From the NCBI GenBank assembly GCA_038327465.1, contig JBBQLB010000012.1, forward strand, positions 5,550 to 69,549: 64,000 nt of DNA, given 5' to 3'. The stretch comes from Sphingomonadales bacterium (lineage in GTDB: Bacteria > Pseudomonadota > Alphaproteobacteria > Sphingomonadales > Sphingomonadaceae). Shown here piece after piece: positions 26,576 through 36,076 of this stretch. The position numbers and the translations under genes were made by a program. The number at the start of each line of letters is the position of its first letter. The first letter of the stretch is position 1. The notes below the pieces were generated by a model. That model was not told the origin of the DNA, searched no databases, and saw only the letters and a list, made by a program, of their open reading frames with translations.

Positions 26576-27936
26576 TCGTGTCGCCAACCTGGGCGGGCAA
26601 GCGCTATGCTGTGCTCGGGTTGGCGCGCTCGGGTGCGGCGAGCGTGCGCGCGCTGGTGGCGGGCGGGGCCGAAGTCACAGCCTGGGATGCTGACGAAAAC
26701 AAGCGAGACGCCATCGCCACCATGTTCTCCGGCGAAGGCCGGAGCCCAGGGTTGCCAAGCGCGTCATCCGAAGCCCTGGGCCCCGGCCTTCGCCGGGGAA
26801 CGGTTGCGCTTGAGGATATCCAAATTCTCGAGATCACCGGTTTCGACGCCCTCATCGTCTCCCCCGGCGTCCCGCTCAATCGTCACCCGGTTGCGGCGAA
26901 GGCGCGCGCGGCGGGGGTCCCGATCATCGGCGACATCGAACTGTTCGCCCAAGCCCGCGCATCCCTACCCCCGCACAAGGTCGTCGGCGTGACGGGCACG
27001 AACGGCAAATCCACCACCGTCTCGCTGATCCACCACATCCTGCAAACCGCCGGCATACCCTCCCGGCTCGGCGGCAATATCGGTCTGCCGATCCTTGAGC
27101 AGGAACCCCTCCCCGAAGGCGGCGTGTACGTGCTCGAACTGTCGAGCTATCAGATCGACCTGACCTTCACCCTCGATTGCGATGTCGCGGTGTTGCTCAA
27201 CATCACGCCCGATCATCTCGACCGCTATGACGGGTTCGAGGCGTACGCTGCGTCCAAAGCCCGGCTGTTTGCGATGCAGTCCAAGGACCACATTGCGATC
27301 ATCGGGATCGGCGACACGCCCTCGGCGCAAATCGCGCGCAGGCTTTCGGCGAAGGGCGAATATCTCACCAAGATCGCGCCCGGCGTGTGCATGGTGCAGC
27401 CGCTGTCGCCGAGCCTGAAAGGACCGCACAATTTGCAAAATGCGCTTGCGGCGATCAACGTCTGCGAGGCGCTGGGTGTGCCGCACGCGGCGATCGATGC
27501 CGGCCTGCTAAGCTTTTCCGGCCTGCCGCACCGGATGGAGCGCGTCGCGACCAAGCACGGCGTTGCGTTCGTCAACGACAGCAAGGCGACCAACCCCGAA
27601 TCGACCGCACCCGCGCTGGCGGCGTTCGAGCGGATCCACTGGATCCTCGGCGGGCAGGCGAAGAGCGACGATCTTGATGCCTGCGCGCCGAGCTTCGGCC
27701 GGGTCGTGCGCGCCTATACGATCGGCGCGTCCGGCGCGAGATTTGCCGAGATTCTGCACGGGAAAGTCCCGGTCGAGGAGAGCGGCGATCTCGCCACAGC
27801 CGTGGCCGCCGCCGCCGCGCATGCGCAGGCCGGGGACACCGTTTTGCTCTCGCCCGCCTGCGCTTCGTTCGACCAGTTCCGTGATTTCGAGGATCGCGGC
27901 GACCAGTTCCGCGCTCTGGTGGAGGCGCTCGCATGA
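26572..27936 (+). CDS. murD: UDP-MurNAc-L-Ala--D-Glu ligase (with in-frame palindromic insert)
   Basis: [46 protein letters not shown]. Confidence 0.96.
26724..26801. repeat. Palindromic element inserted in frame in murD
   Basis: Arms GTTCTCCGGCGAAGGCCGGAGCCCA / TGGGCCCCGGCCTTCGCCGGGGAAC; 78 nt = 26 codons. Confidence 0.88.
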
Positions 27937-29171: not shown

Positions 29172-30328
29172 TGGCGAAACATTTCGTATTGGCGGCGGGT
29201 GGGACTGGCGGCCACATGGTTCCGGCAGCGGCATTGGCAACCGAGCTGATCAAGCGCGGGCACCATGTTGCCCTGGTCAGCGATGAGCGGGGAGTGCGCT
29301 TTCCCGGCCTGTTCGAGGGAATCGAGACACATATCCTGCCCGCCGGACGGTTGGGCGGCGGGCCGATCGGCTATGCCAAGGCGGCGGCGGCGATGCTGAA
29401 GGGCCGCGCCATGGCGATCCGGCTGTACAAGGGCTTCCGGCCCGATGCGGTGATCGGTTTCGGCGGCTATCCCGCCCTTCCGGCGTTGCTGGGCGCATTC
29501 AACCGGGGCATTCCGACGGCGGTGCACGAACAGAATGCCGTGCTTGGCCGCGTCAACCGGCTGGTCGCGGGCAAGGTCAGTGCGATCGCGACCTCCTATG
29601 CCGATGTCCAGCGGCTATCCCCCAAGCATCGCGGCAAGACGCATCTGATCGGCAATCCGGTGCGTGATGCGGTGCTGGCACTCCGCAGCAAACCCTATCC
29701 GCTGCTGGAGGAGGACGGCATTTTCCGCGTGCTGGTAACCGGCGGCAGTCAGGGCGCGAGCGTGCTCAGCCAGGTCGTGCCCGATGGCCTTTCGCTGTTG
29801 CCGGTCGCGTTCCGGCGGCGCTTGCAAGTGACGCACCAGGCGCGGATCGAGGATATCGACGCCTGCCGCGCGAAATATAAGGAACTCGATATCGCGGCAG
29901 ATCTCGCCACCTATCTGCCCGATATGCCCGAACAATTGGCCTGGGCGCATCTGGTGATCGCGCGTGCAGGCGCCTCGACGCTGGCGGAACTGACGTGCGC
30001 GGGGCGGCCAGCGATCCTGGTGCCGTTGCCCAGCGCGACCGACGACCACCAGACCGCGAATGCCAAGGAGATGACCTCGGCCGGGGGCGCGCGGACGATC
30101 GACCAGCGCAGCTTCACGCCGGTCGAACTCGCCAAGCAAATGCAGCGATTGGGGCTCGATCCCGCAGCGCTCCAAAATGCGGCGGCGCGCGCGCGGGCGT
30201 GCGGGCGGCCCGATGCCGCGCGTGATCTGGCCGATCTGGTCGAGAGTTTGGGCGATACGACCGGGGATATGCCGATCGGGGCGGCGCACCCCACGGGCTT
30301 TTCGATGGGCGCGGCGGTACCGGCATGA
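29168..30328 (+). CDS. murG: Undecaprenyldiphospho-MurNAc-pentapeptide GlcNAc transferase
   Basis: AGGTGGH, GFGGY, HEQN, GNPVR, TGGSQGA, RAGAST..E. Confidence 0.97.
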
Positions 30329-31728
30329 GAGGTGTCGCAACCGATATCGGCACGATCCATTTCGTCGGCATCGGCGGCATCGGCATGTCGGGCATTGCCG
30401 AGGTGATGAAGAATCTCGGCTATGCGGTGCAGGGCTCCGACGTGGCCGAGGGCTATGTCGTCGAGGGCTTGCGCGCCAAAGGGATCAAGGTCCTGATCGG
30501 GCATCATGCCGACAATCTCGGCGATGCGGCGGTGATCGTCACCTCGACCGCGATCAAGCGCGGTAACCCGGAAGTCGAGGCGGCGCTCGAACGCCGCATC
30601 CCGGTGGTGCGGCGCGCGGAAATGCTCGCCGAGCTGATGCGGCTGAAATCGACCGTCGCGATTGCGGGCACGCACGGCAAGACCACCACAACCAGCATGG
30701 TCGCGGCGCTGCTCGATGCCGGCGGCGTCGATCCGACCGTCATCAACGGCGGGATCATCAACAGTTACGGGTCGAACGCGCGATTGGGCGCGAGCGACTG
30801 GATGGTGGTCGAGGCCGACGAGAGCGACGGGAGTTTCCTGCGATTGGACGGCACGATCGCGGTCGTCACCAATATCGATCCCGAGCATCTCGACCATTAT
30901 GGGTCGTTCGATGCGGTGAAGGATGCGTTCGTCGAGTTCGTCGAGAATGTGCCCTTCTACGGCGCGGCGCTCCTGTGCCTCGATCACCCCGAAGTGCAGA
31001 ACATCCTCCCGCGCGTGCGCGACCGGCGCGTCGTGACCTACGGCTTTTCGGCGCAATCCGACGTGCGCGGCGTCAACGTAACCCCAATCCCCGGCGGCAA
31101 CCGCTTCGAAGTGATCGTCCGCGACCGCGACGGGACCAGCCGATCGATCGAAGGGATCGAAATGCCGATGCCGGGGCGGCACAATGTCCAGAACGCGCTG
31201 GCGGCGATCGGCGTGGCGCTGGAGCTGGGCATCGATGACGCGACGATCCAGCAGGGTTTCGCCAAGTTCGGCGGTGTGAAGCGGCGCTTCACCAAGGTGG
31301 GCGAGACCGGTGGCGTCACGATCATCGACGATTACGGCCATCACCCGGTCGAAATCCGCGCGGTGCTGTCCGCCGCGCGCGAGGGCGTCGAAAATCGCGT
31401 GATCGCGGTGGTACAACCGCATCGCTACTCGCGGCTCGGTGATTTGATGGAGGAGTTTCAGGGCGCGTTCAACGATGCCGACATGGTGTTCGTGGCACCG
31501 GTTTTTGCGGCGGGCGAGGCACCGGTCGAAGGCGTCGATGCCGAGGCATTGGTCGAGGGGATCAAGCGCCGCGGGCATCGCTCAGCGGCGACGATCGCCG
31601 ATGCGGGCGCGCTCGCGGCGGCGCTGGCGGGCGTGGTGCAGCCGGGGGATATGGTCGTCTGCTTGGGGGCAGGGGATATTACGAAATGGGCGGCCGGCTT
31701 GGCGGCTGGGATTGAGGCGGTGCGATGA
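30325..31728 (+). CDS. murC: UDP-MurNAc--L-alanine ligase
   Basis: [42 protein letters not shown]. Confidence 0.98.
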
Positions 31729-32864
31729 GCGTGCGCGCAACCTCAATCCTCCCCGGAACGGGGAGGGGGACCAGCGAAGCTGGTGGAGGGGGCGCGCCGC
31801 TGGGCGCATCACCTGTGGCAACCCCCCTCCACCATTTGCCGGAAGAGGCAAATGCGTTTGAGCGAGATGGTGTCCCCCGGACACCATCTTGGACTGCCGG
31901 GGGCAGTCCAAAGCTCAAACGCCCTCCCCGTGCCGGGGAGGATTTGCGCGCTCGCGGCCGTCTCACCCAAAACGCCCCCCTCGCCCCACTCGTCTGGTTC
32001 AAATCGGGTGGCACAGCGGAGTGGCTGTTCGAACCCAAGGACATCGCCGACCTAAGCGCCTTCCTCGCCGCACTCGACCCCGCGACCCCCATTCTCCCGC
32101 TCGGCCTCGGCTCGAACATGATCGTCCGCGACGGCGGCGTGCCCGGCGTCGTGATCCGCCTCGGCAAACCGTTCGCCAAGGTCGAAGCGATCGATGCAAC
32201 GACCTTGCGCTGCGGCGGCGGCGCGAGCGGGATCCTCGTCTCCTCGACTGCACGCGATGCCGGGATTGGCGGGGTGGAATTCCTGCGCTCCATCCCCGGC
32301 ACGGTTGGCGGCTTCGTGCGGATGAATGGTGGCGCTTATGGGCGCGAGACGCGCGACATTCTGGTGGAATGCGACATCGTCCTGCGCTCGGGCGAGCGCC
32401 AGACATTGCCGGTCGAGGCGCTTGGCTACACCTATCGCCATTCGATCCTGCCCGATGGCTGCGTCGTCGTCGGCGCGACCTTTCGGGGGCACGTCGAAGA
32501 GTCTGCAGTGATCCAGGCCGAGATGGACCGCATCGCCGCCGCGCGCGAGGAATCGCAGCCGCTGCGCAGCCGCACGGGCGGATCGACCTTCAAGAATCCT
32601 GATGGCCACAAGGCATGGGAACTGATCGATGCCGCCGGGTGCCGGGGCCTCAGGATCGGCGATGCGCAAGTGAGCGAGAAGCATTGCAACTTCCTGCTCA
32701 ACCTCGGGAACGCGACGAGCGCCGAGATCGAAGCGCTCGGCGAACAGGTGCGTGCGCGCGTGCTGGCGCATTCCGGCGTGACGTTGGAGTGGGAAATTCA
32801 GCGGGTGGGTGAAAATCTCCCTCTCCCCCTTGGGGGAGAGGGTCGGGGAGAGGGGCAGTCATGA
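31725..32864 (+). CDS. murB: UDP-N-acetylenolpyruvoylglucosamine reductase (repeat-derived N- and C-terminal additions)
   Basis: [48 protein letters not shown]. Confidence 0.95.
31746..31943. repeat. Composite palindromic element in frame within the murB 5' end
   Basis: Outer arms ATCCTCCCCGGAACGGGGAGG / CCCTCCCCGTGCCGGGGAGGAT plus several internal perfect hairpins; 198 nt = 66 codons. Confidence 0.85.
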
Positions 32865-32938
32865 GCGCCACGTCACGGACTGCCCCTCTCCCGACCTCGC
32901 TGCGCTCGGCCACCCTCTCCCCCAAGGGGGAGAGGGAA
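32816..32938. repeat. Palindromic element spanning the murB stop / ddl start
   Basis: CCCTCTCCCCC-TT-GGGGGAGAGGG and CCCTCTCCCCC-AA-GGGGGAGAGGG arms; inner 15-bp IR 32846-32860 / 32878-32892 encloses the ATGA overlap. Confidence 0.88.
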
Positions 32939-33853
32939 AAGCTCCACGTCGCAGTCTTGATGGGTGGCTGGTCAGCCGAACGCGAGGTTTCGCTATCCTC
33001 GGGCGCGGGCGTTGCCGATGCGTGCGCGAGCCTCGGTCACCGCGTGACGCGGATCGACATGGGGCGTGACGTCGCGGCAAAGCTCGCCGAAGCCGCGCCC
33101 GACATCGTGTTCAACGCGCTCCACGGCACGCCGGGGGAAGACGGGTCGGTGCAGGGCATGCTCGATCTGATGGGTCTGAAATACACGCATTCGGGCCTCG
33201 CCACCTCGGTCATCGCGATCGACAAAGTGCTCACCAAATTGCTGCTGGTCCCCGCTGGCATTCCCATGCCGAGCGGTCGCATCGTCAAGTCGGCGAACCT
33301 CTATGAGGGCGATCCGTTGCCGCGCCCTTATGTGTTGAAACCGGTCAATGAAGGCTCGTCGGTCGGCGTCGCGATTGTCACCGCCGAGGGCAATTACGGC
33401 AACCCGATCGCGCGCACCACGCCCGGCCCGTGGACCGAGTTCGAGGAGCTGCTCGCCGAGCCCTATATCCGCGGGCGCGAATTGACGACGGCGGTGCTGG
33501 GCGACACTGCGCTCGGCGTCACCGAGCTGCGGCCCAAATCGGGCTGGTACGATTACCAATCGAAATATACCGACGGGATGACCGAACATATCTTCCCCGC
33601 CGATATTCCCGATGAGATCACCGCGGCATGCAAGCGCATCGCGCTCGAGGCGCATCGCTTGCTCGGCTGCAAGGGCACGTCGCGATCGGATTTTCGCTGG
33701 GACGATGCGGCCGGGATCGACGGCCTGTTCCTGCTCGAGGTCAATACCCAGCCGGGCATGACGCCGCTCAGCCTGGTGCCCGAACAAGCGCGGCACCTCG
33801 GAATTTCCTATCCGCAGCTCGTCCAAACCATCCTTGATGAGGCCCTTTCATGA
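32861..33853 (+). CDS. ddl: D-alanine--D-alanine ligase
   Basis: MGGWSAEREVS, NALHG..GEDG, KPVNEGSS, EVNTQPGMT..SL.P. Confidence 0.96.
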   Translation: MSATSRTAPLPTSLRSATLSPKGEREKLHVAVLMGGWSAEREVSLSSGAGVADACASLGHRVTRIDMGRDVAAKLAEAAPDIVFNALHGTPGEDGSVQGMLDLMGLKYTHSGLATSVIAIDKVLTKLLLVPAGIPMPSGRIVKSANLYEGDPLPRPYVLKPVNEGSSVGVAIVTAEGNYGNPIARTTPGPWTEFEELLAEPYIRGRELTTAVLGDTALGVTELRPKSGWYDYQSKYTDGMTEHIFPADIPDEITAACKRIALEAHRLLGCKGTSRSDFRWDDAAGIDGLFLLEVNTQPGMTPLSLVPEQARHLGISYPQLVQTILDEALS

Positions 33854-34788
33854 GCGCCACGATCAAACGCGGCACCGCGCGGCGTCCGGTCCAGCCGAAA
33901 CGCCGTAAACCGCCCAAGGTCTCGATCATCGACCGGATGATCACGGCGTTGCCAGTGAGCGAAGCGACGCTGCGGCGGATCGCGACCTGGTCGATCATGG
34001 GGCTCGTCGGCACGGCTGCGCTCGCGACCGCGACGTTTTTCGGCGTGCCGGGCGTCGTGGGGTCGGCGATCGGCGAGGGTATTGGCCAGGCCGGGTTCCG
34101 CGTCACCAATATCCAGATCACCGGGCTCAACCGGATGGACCATAACGTCATTTACAAGATCGCGGCGAACCAGCCATCGATGGCGATGCCGCTCGTAAGC
34201 CTCGAGAAAATCCGCCAGGATCTGCTCGCGCATAGCGGCTGGATCGAGGATGCGCATGTCTCGCGGCGGCTGCCCGATACGCTGATCGTCCATATCGTCG
34301 AGCGCCAGCCATCTGCGATCTGGCAGAAGGATGGCAAATTGTCGCTGATCGCGGCGAACGGGACTTGGCTCGAGCCGGTCGATCCCGAGGCGATGCCCGA
34401 TCTACCGCTCGTCATCGGCGCGCATGCCAATGAACAGGAACCGGCCTATCGGCAATTGCTCGATGTCGCGCCCGCCTTGCGCGGCCAGGTCAAGGCGGCA
34501 ACGTGGGTCGGCAATCGGCGCTGGGATATCACCTTCGAGAGCGGCGAGACGCTCCTGCTGCCAGAGGGAGATATCGAGGCGGCGAAGGCACTGATGTGGT
34601 TCGCGCAGCAGGACGGGGTAAAGCCCCTGCTCGGGCGGGGCTGGGTCCGCTTCGACATGCGCATCCCCACGCAGTTCACGGCGCGCAAGCCGGGTTTGAC
34701 GACGAACAAGGCGATCACCGATCCTGCGGCCGATGCACGACCGGCGGTGATCGAAGCAAAGCAGACGGGCGCGCAGGCGCAAGGGTAA
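33850..34788 (+). CDS. ftsQ: Cell division protein FtsQ
   Basis: TM helix, POTRA (WIEDAHVSRRLPDTL.V.IVER), GNRRWD; position in the cluster. Confidence 0.92.
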   Translation: MSATIKRGTARRPVQPKRRKPPKVSIIDRMITALPVSEATLRRIATWSIMGLVGTAALATATFFGVPGVVGSAIGEGIGQAGFRVTNIQITGLNRMDHNVIYKIAANQPSMAMPLVSLEKIRQDLLAHSGWIEDAHVSRRLPDTLIVHIVERQPSAIWQKDGKLSLIAANGTWLEPVDPEAMPDLPLVIGAHANEQEPAYRQLLDVAPALRGQVKAATWVGNRRWDITFESGETLLLPEGDIEAAKALMWFAQQDGVKPLLGRGWVRFDMRIPTQFTARKPGLTTNKAITDPAADARPAVIEAKQTGAQAQG

Positions 34789-34813: not shown

Positions 34814-36076
34814 ATGGCGAACAGGGCACCCGAAGGATTGATCACCGCGCTCGACATCGGGTCGTCGAAGGTCTCCGCAATGATCGCGCAGAAGGGCGAT
34901 GGCGGCGAATTGATCGTGCTCGGCACCGGCCAGCGTGAGAGCCGAGGCGTCAAGCGCGGCTATATCGCCGATGCCGCAGCGACCGAAGTCGCCGTGCGCG
35001 AAGCGGTCGAGCAAGCCGAGCGGATCGCGGGCACCAATATCGAGAATGTCTGGGTCAGCTTTTCGGCCGGCGGATTGGTGTCGGACGTCGCGTCGATCGA
35101 GTTCGAACTCGGCGGCCACCGCGTCGAACAATCGGACATTGACGCGCTTTTGCAGGCGGGGCGGGATTCGATCGACCCGGCCGGGCGGATGGTGCTGCAC
35201 GCGCAGCCCGCGCTCTACACGCTCGACGGGCTGACCGGGGTCAAGCGGCCGCTGGGACTCCATGCCGATCGGCTTGGCGTGCATATCCACGTCGTGGCGG
35301 CGGACGGATCGCCGGTGCGCAATCTCGGGCTGTGTGTGGCGAATGCGCATCTCGAGGTGAAGGCGATCATCGCCTCACCGGTTGCGACCGGGATGGCGTG
35401 CCTCAGCGATGAAGAGCGCGAACTGGGCGTGGCTTTGGTCGAACTGGGGGCCGGTATCACCAACGTGTCGCTCTTTGCAGGCGGGATGCTGGTCGGTTTG
35501 CTGTCGATCCCGATTGGCGCGCAGGACATCACCGACGATATCGCATCCGCCTTCGGAACGCGCCGCGCGCAGGCCGAGCGGATGAAGTGCGTCCACGGCT
35601 CCGCCAACGCATCCCCGCGCGACAATCACGAGATGATCGACGTCGCGCCGATTTCGACCGAGGACGATGCAAGCGACGGCACGCGCATCACCAAGGCGCA
35701 GCTGATCACGGTGATCCGCCAGCGGCTCGACCATCTGATCGGCGAAGTCGGCAAGGCGCTCGCCGAGTTGAAGTTCGAAGGGCCGGTCGGGCGGCAAGTG
35801 GTACTGACCGGCGGCGGCGCGGAATTGAAGGGCATCGCCGATTATGTGCAAGCGGCGCTCGGTCGATCGGTGCGGATCGGACGCCCGCGCGGACTGACGG
35901 GCCTGCCCGAGGCGCATGCGACGCCCGCTTTCACGACGCTGGCTGGCCTCGCTTTCTATGCTGCAGCCGACCCGGTCGACCTGCGCGCTTTGTCGAGCAA
36001 GCAGCAATTGGTGCATCGCCCCAAGGGATTCGCGCTGTTTCGCCGTCTGATCGCGGCCGCCAGAGCGAATTATTAA
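34814..36076 (+). CDS. ftsA: Cell division protein FtsA
   Basis: LDIGSSKV, VELGAG.T, VLTGGG, C-terminal amphipathic helix. Confidence 0.96.
   Translation: MANRAPEGLITALDIGSSKVSAMIAQKGDGGELIVLGTGQRESRGVKRGYIADAAATEVAVREAVEQAERIAGTNIENVWVSFSAGGLVSDVASIEFELGGHRVEQSDIDALLQAGRDSIDPAGRMVLHAQPALYTLDGLTGVKRPLGLHADRLGVHIHVVAADGSPVRNLGLCVANAHLEVKAIIASPVATGMACLSDEERELGVALVELGAGITNVSLFAGGMLVGLLSIPIGAQDITDDIASAFGTRRAQAERMKCVHGSANASPRDNHEMIDVAPISTEDDASDGTRITKAQLITVIRQRLDHLIGEVGKALAELKFEGPVGRQVVLTGGGAELKGIADYVQAALGRSVRIGRPRGLTGLPEAHATPAFTTLAGLAFYAAADPVDLRALSSKQQLVHRPKGFALFRRLIAAARANY

Follow-up and report, generated by a model that had tools for sequence, protein, structure and literature searches.

The 64,000-nt stretch of DNA analysed here (the window) contains a dcw cluster in which a palindrome is wrapped around the point where murB ends and ddl begins. 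What is this palindrome, what does it do to the two essential enzymes on either side of it, and is it a device for coupling their synthesis, as an earlier note made from the sequence alone had proposed? The cluster comprises murC (30325–31728), murB (31725–32864), ddl (32861–33853), ftsQ (33850–34788), and ftsA (34814–36076). The murB gene encodes UDP-N-acetylenolpyruvoylglucosamine reductase, with the Pfam domains FAD_binding_4 and MurB_C, and ddl encodes a D-alanine-D-alanine ligase, with Dala_Dala_lig_N and _C domains, which has a single match in the genome and is thus its sole copy. Both genes, and all parts of the junction described below, are read on the forward strand.

Anatomy of the junction element

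The murB stop and the ddl start share the nucleotides ATGA at 32861–32864. As the earlier note had described, this overlap falls in a 17-nt apical loop (32861–32877; ddl ATG at 32861–32863 and murB TGA at 32862–32864) between two inverted arms of 15 nt (32846–32860 and 32878–32892), which are 100% complementary. The arm pattern has two matches in the 64-kb window, compared with 0.06 expected, and both are these two arms. The left arm, GGGAGAGGGGCAGTC, contains the Shine-Dalgarno-like GGAGAGGGG (32847–32855) and lies within the MurB tail, and the right arm, GACTGCCCCTCTCCC, is read as TAPLP within the Ddl leader that precedes KLHVAVLMGG; on these points, too, the translations agree with the earlier description.

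The 15-bp hairpin is merely the centre of a larger three-hairpin element of 122 nt (32816–32937), which consists of a left hairpin, the central hairpin, a linker, and a right hairpin, and which belongs to a repeat family that we call family A. Its outer inverted arms (32818–32850 and 32905–32937) are 33 nt each and 91% complementary. The left hairpin contains a perfect palindrome of 24 nt, CCCTCTCCCCC TT GGGGGAGAGGG (32819–32842), a module found again across the genome, and inverted and direct repeat detection identified a second perfect palindrome of the same length on the right, CCCTCTCCCCC AA GGGGGAGAGGG (32913–32936). The linker, GACCTCGCTGCGCTCGGCCA (32893–32912), is an optional module of 20 nt that encodes TSLRSAT here and is present on one side of some other copies (C31, C73, C39, C9, C27, and C74). 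The murB/ddl copy can be aligned end to end with 10 other copies in the genome. It has GAAAA on both flanks (32811–15 and 32936–40); other copies have A/T-rich flanks with no consistent duplication. The palindrome at murB/ddl is a real feature, a copy of an RPE-like/REP-like family in an unusual position.

A repeat family in Sphingomonas

The genome (3.33 Mb, in an 88-contig draft) belongs to the genus Sphingomonas, in which S. glacialis and S. echinoides are its closest named relatives. It contains at least 14 loci with the three-hairpin architecture, so that the description of the palindrome as part of a repeat family holds. The layout of family A is a hairpin, GGGGAGAGGGGCAGT, a variable loop, ACTGCCCCTCTCCCC, and a second hairpin; variants in this genome include CCCCTCCC and CCCTCACCC types, composites built from this hairpin module, and solo hairpins. 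From copy to copy the hairpin modules are conserved and the loops vary freely. A signature of the half-element was found in 29 of 61 sampled Sphingomonas genomes, at 0–26 exact copies each (the reversed control gave 0), and in many genomes pairs of signatures on opposite strands occur 60–65 nt apart.

Copies of family A are concentrated at gene ends. Those in intergenic regions occupy the gap between stop and start almost exactly, and several of them (C9, C15, C27, and C49) end 5–14 nt upstream of the start codon of the next gene. Over all six frames the copies contain 23 stop codons, compared with 46 ± 6 expected from composition. Because the element is stop-poor in all frames, an open frame through a copy is in itself no evidence of translation or of selection.

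A search of Rfam 15 gave no family at gathering score, returning only generic miRNA-precursor hairpins (best 32.8 bits against a cut-off of 60), and membership of a known RNA family was rejected on this basis. Likewise, the RAYT transposase domain (Y1_Tnp, PF01797) had no match in this 96.5%-complete genome, although the same search was positive in 6 of 14 control genomes, and we rejected membership of a REP-RAYT system. We found no description in the literature of a Sphingomonas repeat family or of repeats at coupled junctions, and family A is apparently undescribed.

Copies read in frame within other genes

Four copies in this genome lie in frame inside other genes of essential or central function, namely uvrA, pheS, pdhB, and pdhC; in pyruvate dehydrogenase, E1-beta and E2 each have the copy in a lipoyl-domain linker. 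The translated register has the form ...GEGRGEG...loop...PLP..SP.GERE(K), and one frame is used by five of the six translated right halves. Where the PheS of this genome contains the 122-nt element, relatives have about 10 residues (LAGEHERPMV). The corresponding site in UvrA is empty in three genomes (G001, G003, and G005) and contains diverged versions of the insert in three others (G010, G006, and G009), which indicates that such inserts are heritable and old. Translation through family-A elements thus appears, from these comparisons, to be tolerated in essential proteins.

The murB/ddl junction in relatives

Orthologous murB/ddl junctions without the element are short and lack the residues that it adds. 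Of 24 genus relatives, 11 have a compact junction, with 38–56 nt between the murB EWEI codons and the Ddl core, and 31 of the 72 scorable junctions from named genomes are likewise compact. In these, MurB ends with RVG plus about 3 residues, the genes overlap by ATGA or GTGA, and Ddl begins 2–6 residues before LH(I/V)AVLMGG; most relatives have the RTGA overlap. The compact junction with an RTGA overlap is ancestral in this genus. In S. glacialis, Ant H11, and L084, which are most closely related to the present genome, the junctions are compact or quite different. The junction of the present genome is therefore not one shared unchanged with distant sphingomonads, and the repeat family to which it belongs is found elsewhere in the same genome. 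Given the compact junctions of relatives, the extra residues (about 15 in MurB and about 22–24 in Ddl) derive from the insert.

Across the genus, three or more repeat families occur at this junction, as do an extra ORF and a murB-ddl fusion. Family B, with TCCTCCCC...GGGGAGGA ends, and family C, a CGTCGCCCCGGCG...-type palindrome whose hosts include the closest relative S. glacialis, are unrelated to family A and are the occupants in about 20 other genomes. Elsewhere the extra ORF measures about 490 nt, and in one case murB and ddl are fused in frame. These contents identify the junction as a landing site that tolerates repeats. Family A itself occurs at murB/ddl in three layouts. The whole element lies in the murB tail, followed by the ATGA, in G004 and L109; a solo hairpin is present in S. 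liriopis; and the stop and start lie in the central loop in the present genome (G000), the MAG L085, G016/L093, L099, and S. echinoides ATCC 14820.

Residues added to MurB and Ddl

The element encodes a C-terminal tail of 15 residues (32817–32861) in MurB, a protein of 379 residues whose Pfam MurB_C match extends to residue 360, and an N-terminal leader of 26 residues in Ddl (32861–32938), which makes this protein about 22–24 residues longer than those of relatives. From the stop that precedes it up to the Ddl core, the ddl frame contains a single ATG, GTG, or TTG, namely ATG 32861. The next candidates in frame, TTG 32957 and ATG 32960, fall within the strand L28–G36, which is the first beta-strand of the structural model and is invariant or nearly so across 43 Sphingomonas Ddl sequences. 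The earlier claim that Ddl has no other usable start is upheld by this arrangement, and Ddl most likely starts at 32861 and bears the leader.

The added peptides are of low complexity, rich in P, G, E, and R, and are probably disordered appendages. In an AF2 model of Ddl of mediocre quality (mean pLDDT 63.6), leader residues 1–23 have pLDDT <50, which hints at disorder. The earlier note went further and saw here an example of de novo peptide recruitment. Repeat DNA does occupy both reading frames, but nothing shows that the resulting peptides do anything.

Predicted occlusion of the ddl start

In the predicted RNA fold, the 122 nt form a single long hairpin with interruptions, at −112.6 kcal/mol (z = −8.6; none of 200 shuffles did as well), and the ATG falls in its apical loop. 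For the central hairpin folded alone the value is −37.5 kcal/mol. The opening cost calculated in silico for the ddl ATG region from −15 to +5 is 34.3 kcal/mol, compared with a median of 11.3 kcal/mol (IQR 7.6–16.3) for 68 other Sphingomonas junctions and 6.4–10 kcal/mol for the other dcw starts in the window. The left arm places GAGG at −11 to −8 from the ddl ATG, a spacing also found for the starts of murB and ftsQ. We take this GAGG to be the Shine-Dalgarno sequence, assuming the usual anti-SD sequence, as the 3' end of the 16S rRNA is absent from the assembly. The start codon thus does lie, in prediction, in a stable stem-loop, as proposed, with both ATG and GAGG locked. At such an opening cost, free 30S binding should be negligible, and the occlusion of GAGG and ATG implies that ddl translation probably depends on ribosomes that finish murB, which we regard as a sound physical inference from the modelled fold. 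A consensus search between murB and ddl found no promoter-like or terminator-like signals and no terminator-like T-run, and a terminator or promoter role for the element was rejected for lack of matches.

It does not follow that the repeat is the coupling device that the earlier note took it for. The RTGA overlap is ancestral in the genus and occurs without any repeat, and lineages that do have repeats at this junction differ in outcome, with the element wholly in the murB tail in some and the stop and start separate in others. The coupling overlap is accordingly older than the element, which would have inherited coupling and at most made it obligatory. Such differing outcomes are more in keeping with selfish DNA that is tolerated than with a regulator under selection. 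We see no evidence for adaptation at the murB/ddl hairpin, which reads best, from the comparison of junctions, as tolerated selfish DNA and not as an evolved device.

History of the loop-type layout

In a tree of MurB+Ddl, the five loop-type junctions occur in five separate places, so that five changes are needed, and each has near relatives without the element. An AU test rejects a clade of G000, L085, and ATCC 14820 (p = 1.8e-44). A single origin of the loop-type junctions, in the form of a simple clade, was rejected on the basis of the tree and this test. G000 and L085 have an identical 20-nt linker at this junction, and G000 and ATCC 14820 have in common the RVGEN left flank and the loop GTCATGAGCG; these shared details suggest that some lineages share alleles. 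Either the loop layout would arise repeatedly or the junction allele would move by recombination.

For repeated origin, we propose a hypothetical route in which the element would insert in frame into the murB tail, giving the state found in G004 and L109. If a mutation then produced ATGA within the loop so that its TGA was in frame with murB, the ATG would automatically be in frame with ddl. The old start would then decay; it is kept in ATCC 14820 and L085 and lost in G000 and G016. We also considered whether the loop is native junction DNA with the two halves inserted around it. The loops in PheS and UvrA are unlike the native residues of relatives, however, and in a shuffle test of the five junction loops only G000 (p = 0.015) and L099 (p = 0.044) reached significance; the remaining three did no better than chance, and control loops at times scored equally high. 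As the support was weak and inconsistent, this idea was not adopted.

Recurrence in five lineages is not predicted by simple neutrality; it may be a sign of selection, or of a poorly understood mode of insertion. We regard it as unlikely, if worth stating, that the loop layout is a repeatable outcome and not the chance result of a single insertion, produced either by an insertion or conversion mechanism of the family that wraps its halves around an existing G-run/RTGA/C-run junction or by repeated selection locking Ddl synthesis to MurB translation through a hairpin that cannot be melted. If this hypothesis were correct, the mobile element would be a portable, obligatory translational-coupling module between consecutive peptidoglycan precursor steps.

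Interpretation and alternatives

The reading that we prefer, with a probability of roughly 0.7, is that a non-coding modular repeat occupies the murB/ddl junction, extends both proteins, and makes a pre-existing coupling effectively obligatory, and that its insertion is tolerated and was not selected for coupling. The anatomy, the family membership, the status as an insert, the absence of another start, and the predicted occlusion are established by the analysis; we infer that tail and leader are translated, that the coupling works, and that the insertion is neutral. In mechanistic terms, a modular REP/MITE-like palindromic repeat, RPE-like in behaviour, would have come to occupy the junction. 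Nearly free of stops, it would be read in frame in both halves and would give MurB a longer C-terminus and Ddl a longer N-terminus. In naked mRNA, the GAGG and ATG of ddl would be buried in a stem too stable for free 30S binding. A ribosome translating murB would melt the left arm, terminate at the UGA (32862–64), and re-initiate one base upstream, the ATG being freed because the terminating ribosome would hold the left arm inside it. Termination-reinitiation, which the genus would already have used before the insertion, would now be effectively obligatory. The insertion would persist because it is compatible with this pre-existing coupling, and not because it was selected to create coupling.

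That the hairpin was instead selected to tie Ddl to MurB synthesis, or to set their ratio, seems rather improbable to us, although several observations fit it. These include the extreme occlusion of the start site (34.3 kcal/mol), the recurrence of the stop/start-in-loop layout in five host lineages that are separate in the tree of MurB+Ddl, and the greater number of loop-type junctions (five) than of junctions with the whole element in murB (two). Against this, RTGA coupling is ancestral and needs no element, and S. glacialis, Ant H11, and L084, the closest relatives, do with compact or different junctions. Family A is also found where coupling is irrelevant, inside pheS and uvrA, and the presence of the unrelated families B and C in about 20 genomes indicates a tolerant landing site. 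The linker shared by G000 and L085, and the flank and loop shared by G000 and ATCC 14820, could reflect recombinational spread of an allele. It is also improbable, to a greater degree, that the leader is untranslated and that Ddl starts downstream, at CTG 32900, TTG 32957, or ATG 32960, with GGGAGAGGGA at the 3' end of the element as its Shine-Dalgarno sequence. Many other copies appear to serve the genes downstream of them in this way, several of them ending 5–14 nt before the next gene's start, and ATCC 14820 and L085 do have a GTG or TTG in frame at SD distance after the element. In G000 and G016, however, there is no ATG, GTG, or TTG between the element and the Ddl core, and SD distance is occupied by the codons CTC and CAC. 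TTG 32957 and ATG 32960 are 20–23 nt from GGAG, and their use would delete the invariant strand L28–G36; CTG 32900, situated between two hairpins, lacks an SD.

We give a slightly smaller chance to a role at the RNA or DNA level, as an RNase III/E site or 3'-exonuclease barrier that would uncouple the mRNA levels of murB and ddl, or as a protein-binding or replication-pausing site, to which the coding effects would be incidental. The element would form a near-perfect duplex of 26 bp plus 15 bp, which in principle would suffice for a double-strand-specific RNase, and REP sequences in E. coli uncouple the mRNA levels of neighbouring genes. Conserved hairpin modules with variable loops, concentrated at gene ends, would also suit such a role. 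Cleavage in or near the loop would nonetheless destroy the sole ddl start, the element lies within coding sequence that translating ribosomes would keep melted, and the T-run of a terminator is lacking. A role of this kind is compatible with the main explanation and does not exclude it. Finally, a mis-assembled or chimeric palindrome has a negligible probability. The assembly is a draft of 88 contigs, some of which break inside family-A copies (C15, C32, C59, and the start of C17), and the scaffold of ATCC 14820 has a 531-N gap inside the same element at murB/ddl. The element of the present genome, however, is internal to a 75-kb contig and keeps both reading frames exactly, and an artefact is ruled out by the same architecture in four other independent assemblies (L085, L093/G016, L099, and ATCC 14820).

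Comparison with known systems

The best-documented case of palindromic repeats colonising essential genes in frame is that of Rickettsia. The same in-frame behaviour is now found in free-living, GC-rich Sphingomonas, through a family that is apparently undescribed. RPEs, according to the summary of Ogata et al. (2000) in PMC10969869, are palindromic repeats located in frame within Rickettsia housekeeping genes. Like them, family A consists of dispersed non-coding palindromes of 100–150 bp that lie in frame in unrelated housekeeping genes and add a family-typical peptide. The sites are likewise fold-tolerant, here comprising a variable loop of PheS, a loop of UvrA, the E1-beta and E2 lipoyl linkers, the MurB C-terminus, and the Ddl N-terminus. 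In contrast to RPEs, whose hosts have reduced intracellular genomes, family A is found in a free-living, GC-rich Sphingomonas. It has few copies, tens at most, and its murB/ddl copy spans a stop/start overlap, extends two proteins, and has a start codon in its loop. The likeness that we draw between family A and RPEs is one of behaviour and not of membership in the RPE sequence families. Our literature search found no report of a single repeat spanning a stop/start overlap with the start codon in its loop.

Family A also resembles REP, REPIN, and BIME sequences and the RIME of Rhizobium in its GC-rich hairpin modules, its inverted pairs and mosaics, and its tight fit between a stop and the next gene. 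As in REPs and REPINs, the stems are conserved and the spacers vary, and the two halves are inverted copies around a variable loop. It differs from REP/REPIN-RAYT systems in that the genome contains no PF01797 and in that many copies are intragenic and translated, which is atypical of classical REPs. MITEs such as Correia, ERIC, and Nezha are occasionally fused in frame with host ORFs (PMC10969869). Family A has the terminal inverted repeats of a MITE (33 nt, 91%), a similar length of about 120 bp (122 nt here), no ORF of its own, and a dispersed distribution, but no consistent target-site duplication can be defined in its A/T-rich flanks.

As in coupling by ATGA or GTGA overlap and of the MS2 type, the ddl start is sequestered, and the 4-nt overlap is predicted to permit termination-reinitiation. 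In structure-gated coupling of the MS2 coat/replicase type, the upstream ribosome opens a sequestered downstream start. At murB/ddl the occluding structure comes from a mobile repeat and not from evolved local sequence, and the effect is one calculated in silico.

In the murB/ddl copy, one element would extend two essential enzymes, with the sole ddl start at the apex of a hairpin of roughly −110 kcal/mol. The junction thus offers a test case for the extent to which ribosome helicase activity and termination-reinitiation override mRNA structure, as well as for the tolerance of MurB and Ddl to terminal 'junk' and for the turnover of gene junctions. For annotation, repeat-derived extensions and mis-called starts are to be expected in the dcw genes of Sphingomonas.

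Repeat copies within housekeeping genes

Four housekeeping genes of this genome carry in-frame copies of family A, the 122-nt three-hairpin palindromic repeat, which is read through as part of the host protein. These are uvrA (contig C17, 42701-42812), pheS (C30, 30825-30946), and the genes for E1-beta (C2, 158590-158692) and E2 (C67, 8248-8355). In both pheS and uvrA, the site was confirmed to be empty in relatives, and diverged copies occupy the identical uvrA position in genomes G010, G006, and G009.

A partial family A element also lies at the prfA/prmC junction (C74, 477-577), which we compared with the same junction at loci L164 (genome G009), L165 (G007), and L161 (G002). The conserved core of PrmC in this genome has no nearby start codon, and only two in-frame starts are available, both ATG codons: one (-36 aa) lies within the partial element's central loop, and the other (-84 aa) overlaps the stop of prfA. 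Family-A-type elements, with a loop holding ATGA or GTGA, are present at this junction in G009 and G007, and in compact relatives the two genes overlap by GTGA.

Several contigs of the assembly start inside family A copies (C15, 1-47; C32, 1-89; C59, 1-25; C17, 7-31). The assembly therefore breaks at these repeats, and the true copy number in this genome is probably higher than the number counted. The 3' end of the 16S rRNA was not found in this assembly.

Other repeats in the mur cluster

Between the murC stop, which lies within the ATGA at 31725-31728 of the window, and the MurB core is a multi-hairpin repeat of family B (31746-31943), with ends TCCTCCCC...GGGGAGGA. There are two candidate MurB starts, the ATG at 31725, from which about 73 residues would be encoded by the repeat, and an in-frame TTG at 31944-31946, which has GGAGGA only 2 nt upstream. 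Family B also fills the murB/ddl junction in approximately a dozen other Sphingomonas genomes. A 78-nt palindromic insert inside murD (26724-26801) is, judging from its sequence, a member of a third repeat family of the GGCGAAGGCCGG...CCGGCCTTCGCC type and not of family A.

The murB/ddl junction

The loop of the murB/ddl element, AGCGCCACGTCAC (32864-32876), is identical at 11 of 13 positions to AGCTCCACGTCGC (32940-32952), with which the Ddl core begins, the two being read in different frames. A similar likeness is found at locus L099 and is absent in three other lineages.

The murB/ddl junction takes other forms in several relatives. At L024 (G015), a single 726-aa open frame joins murB and ddl with no stop codon between them, running across a remnant family B hairpin and apparently encoding a MurB-Ddl fusion protein. 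In L022 (G019, Sphingosinithalassobacter portus), L097, L132, L136, and L158 the junction spans about 535 nt, and in L022 and L132 it contains an additional small ORF (about 160 aa) inserted between the genes. In L131 (S. liriopis RP10), a solo family A hairpin lies immediately 5' of the ATGA; there the murB frame has no stop at the ATGA and extends into ddl for about 170 codons in a different reading frame, which is a long overlapping tail or else the result of a frameshift or assembly error.
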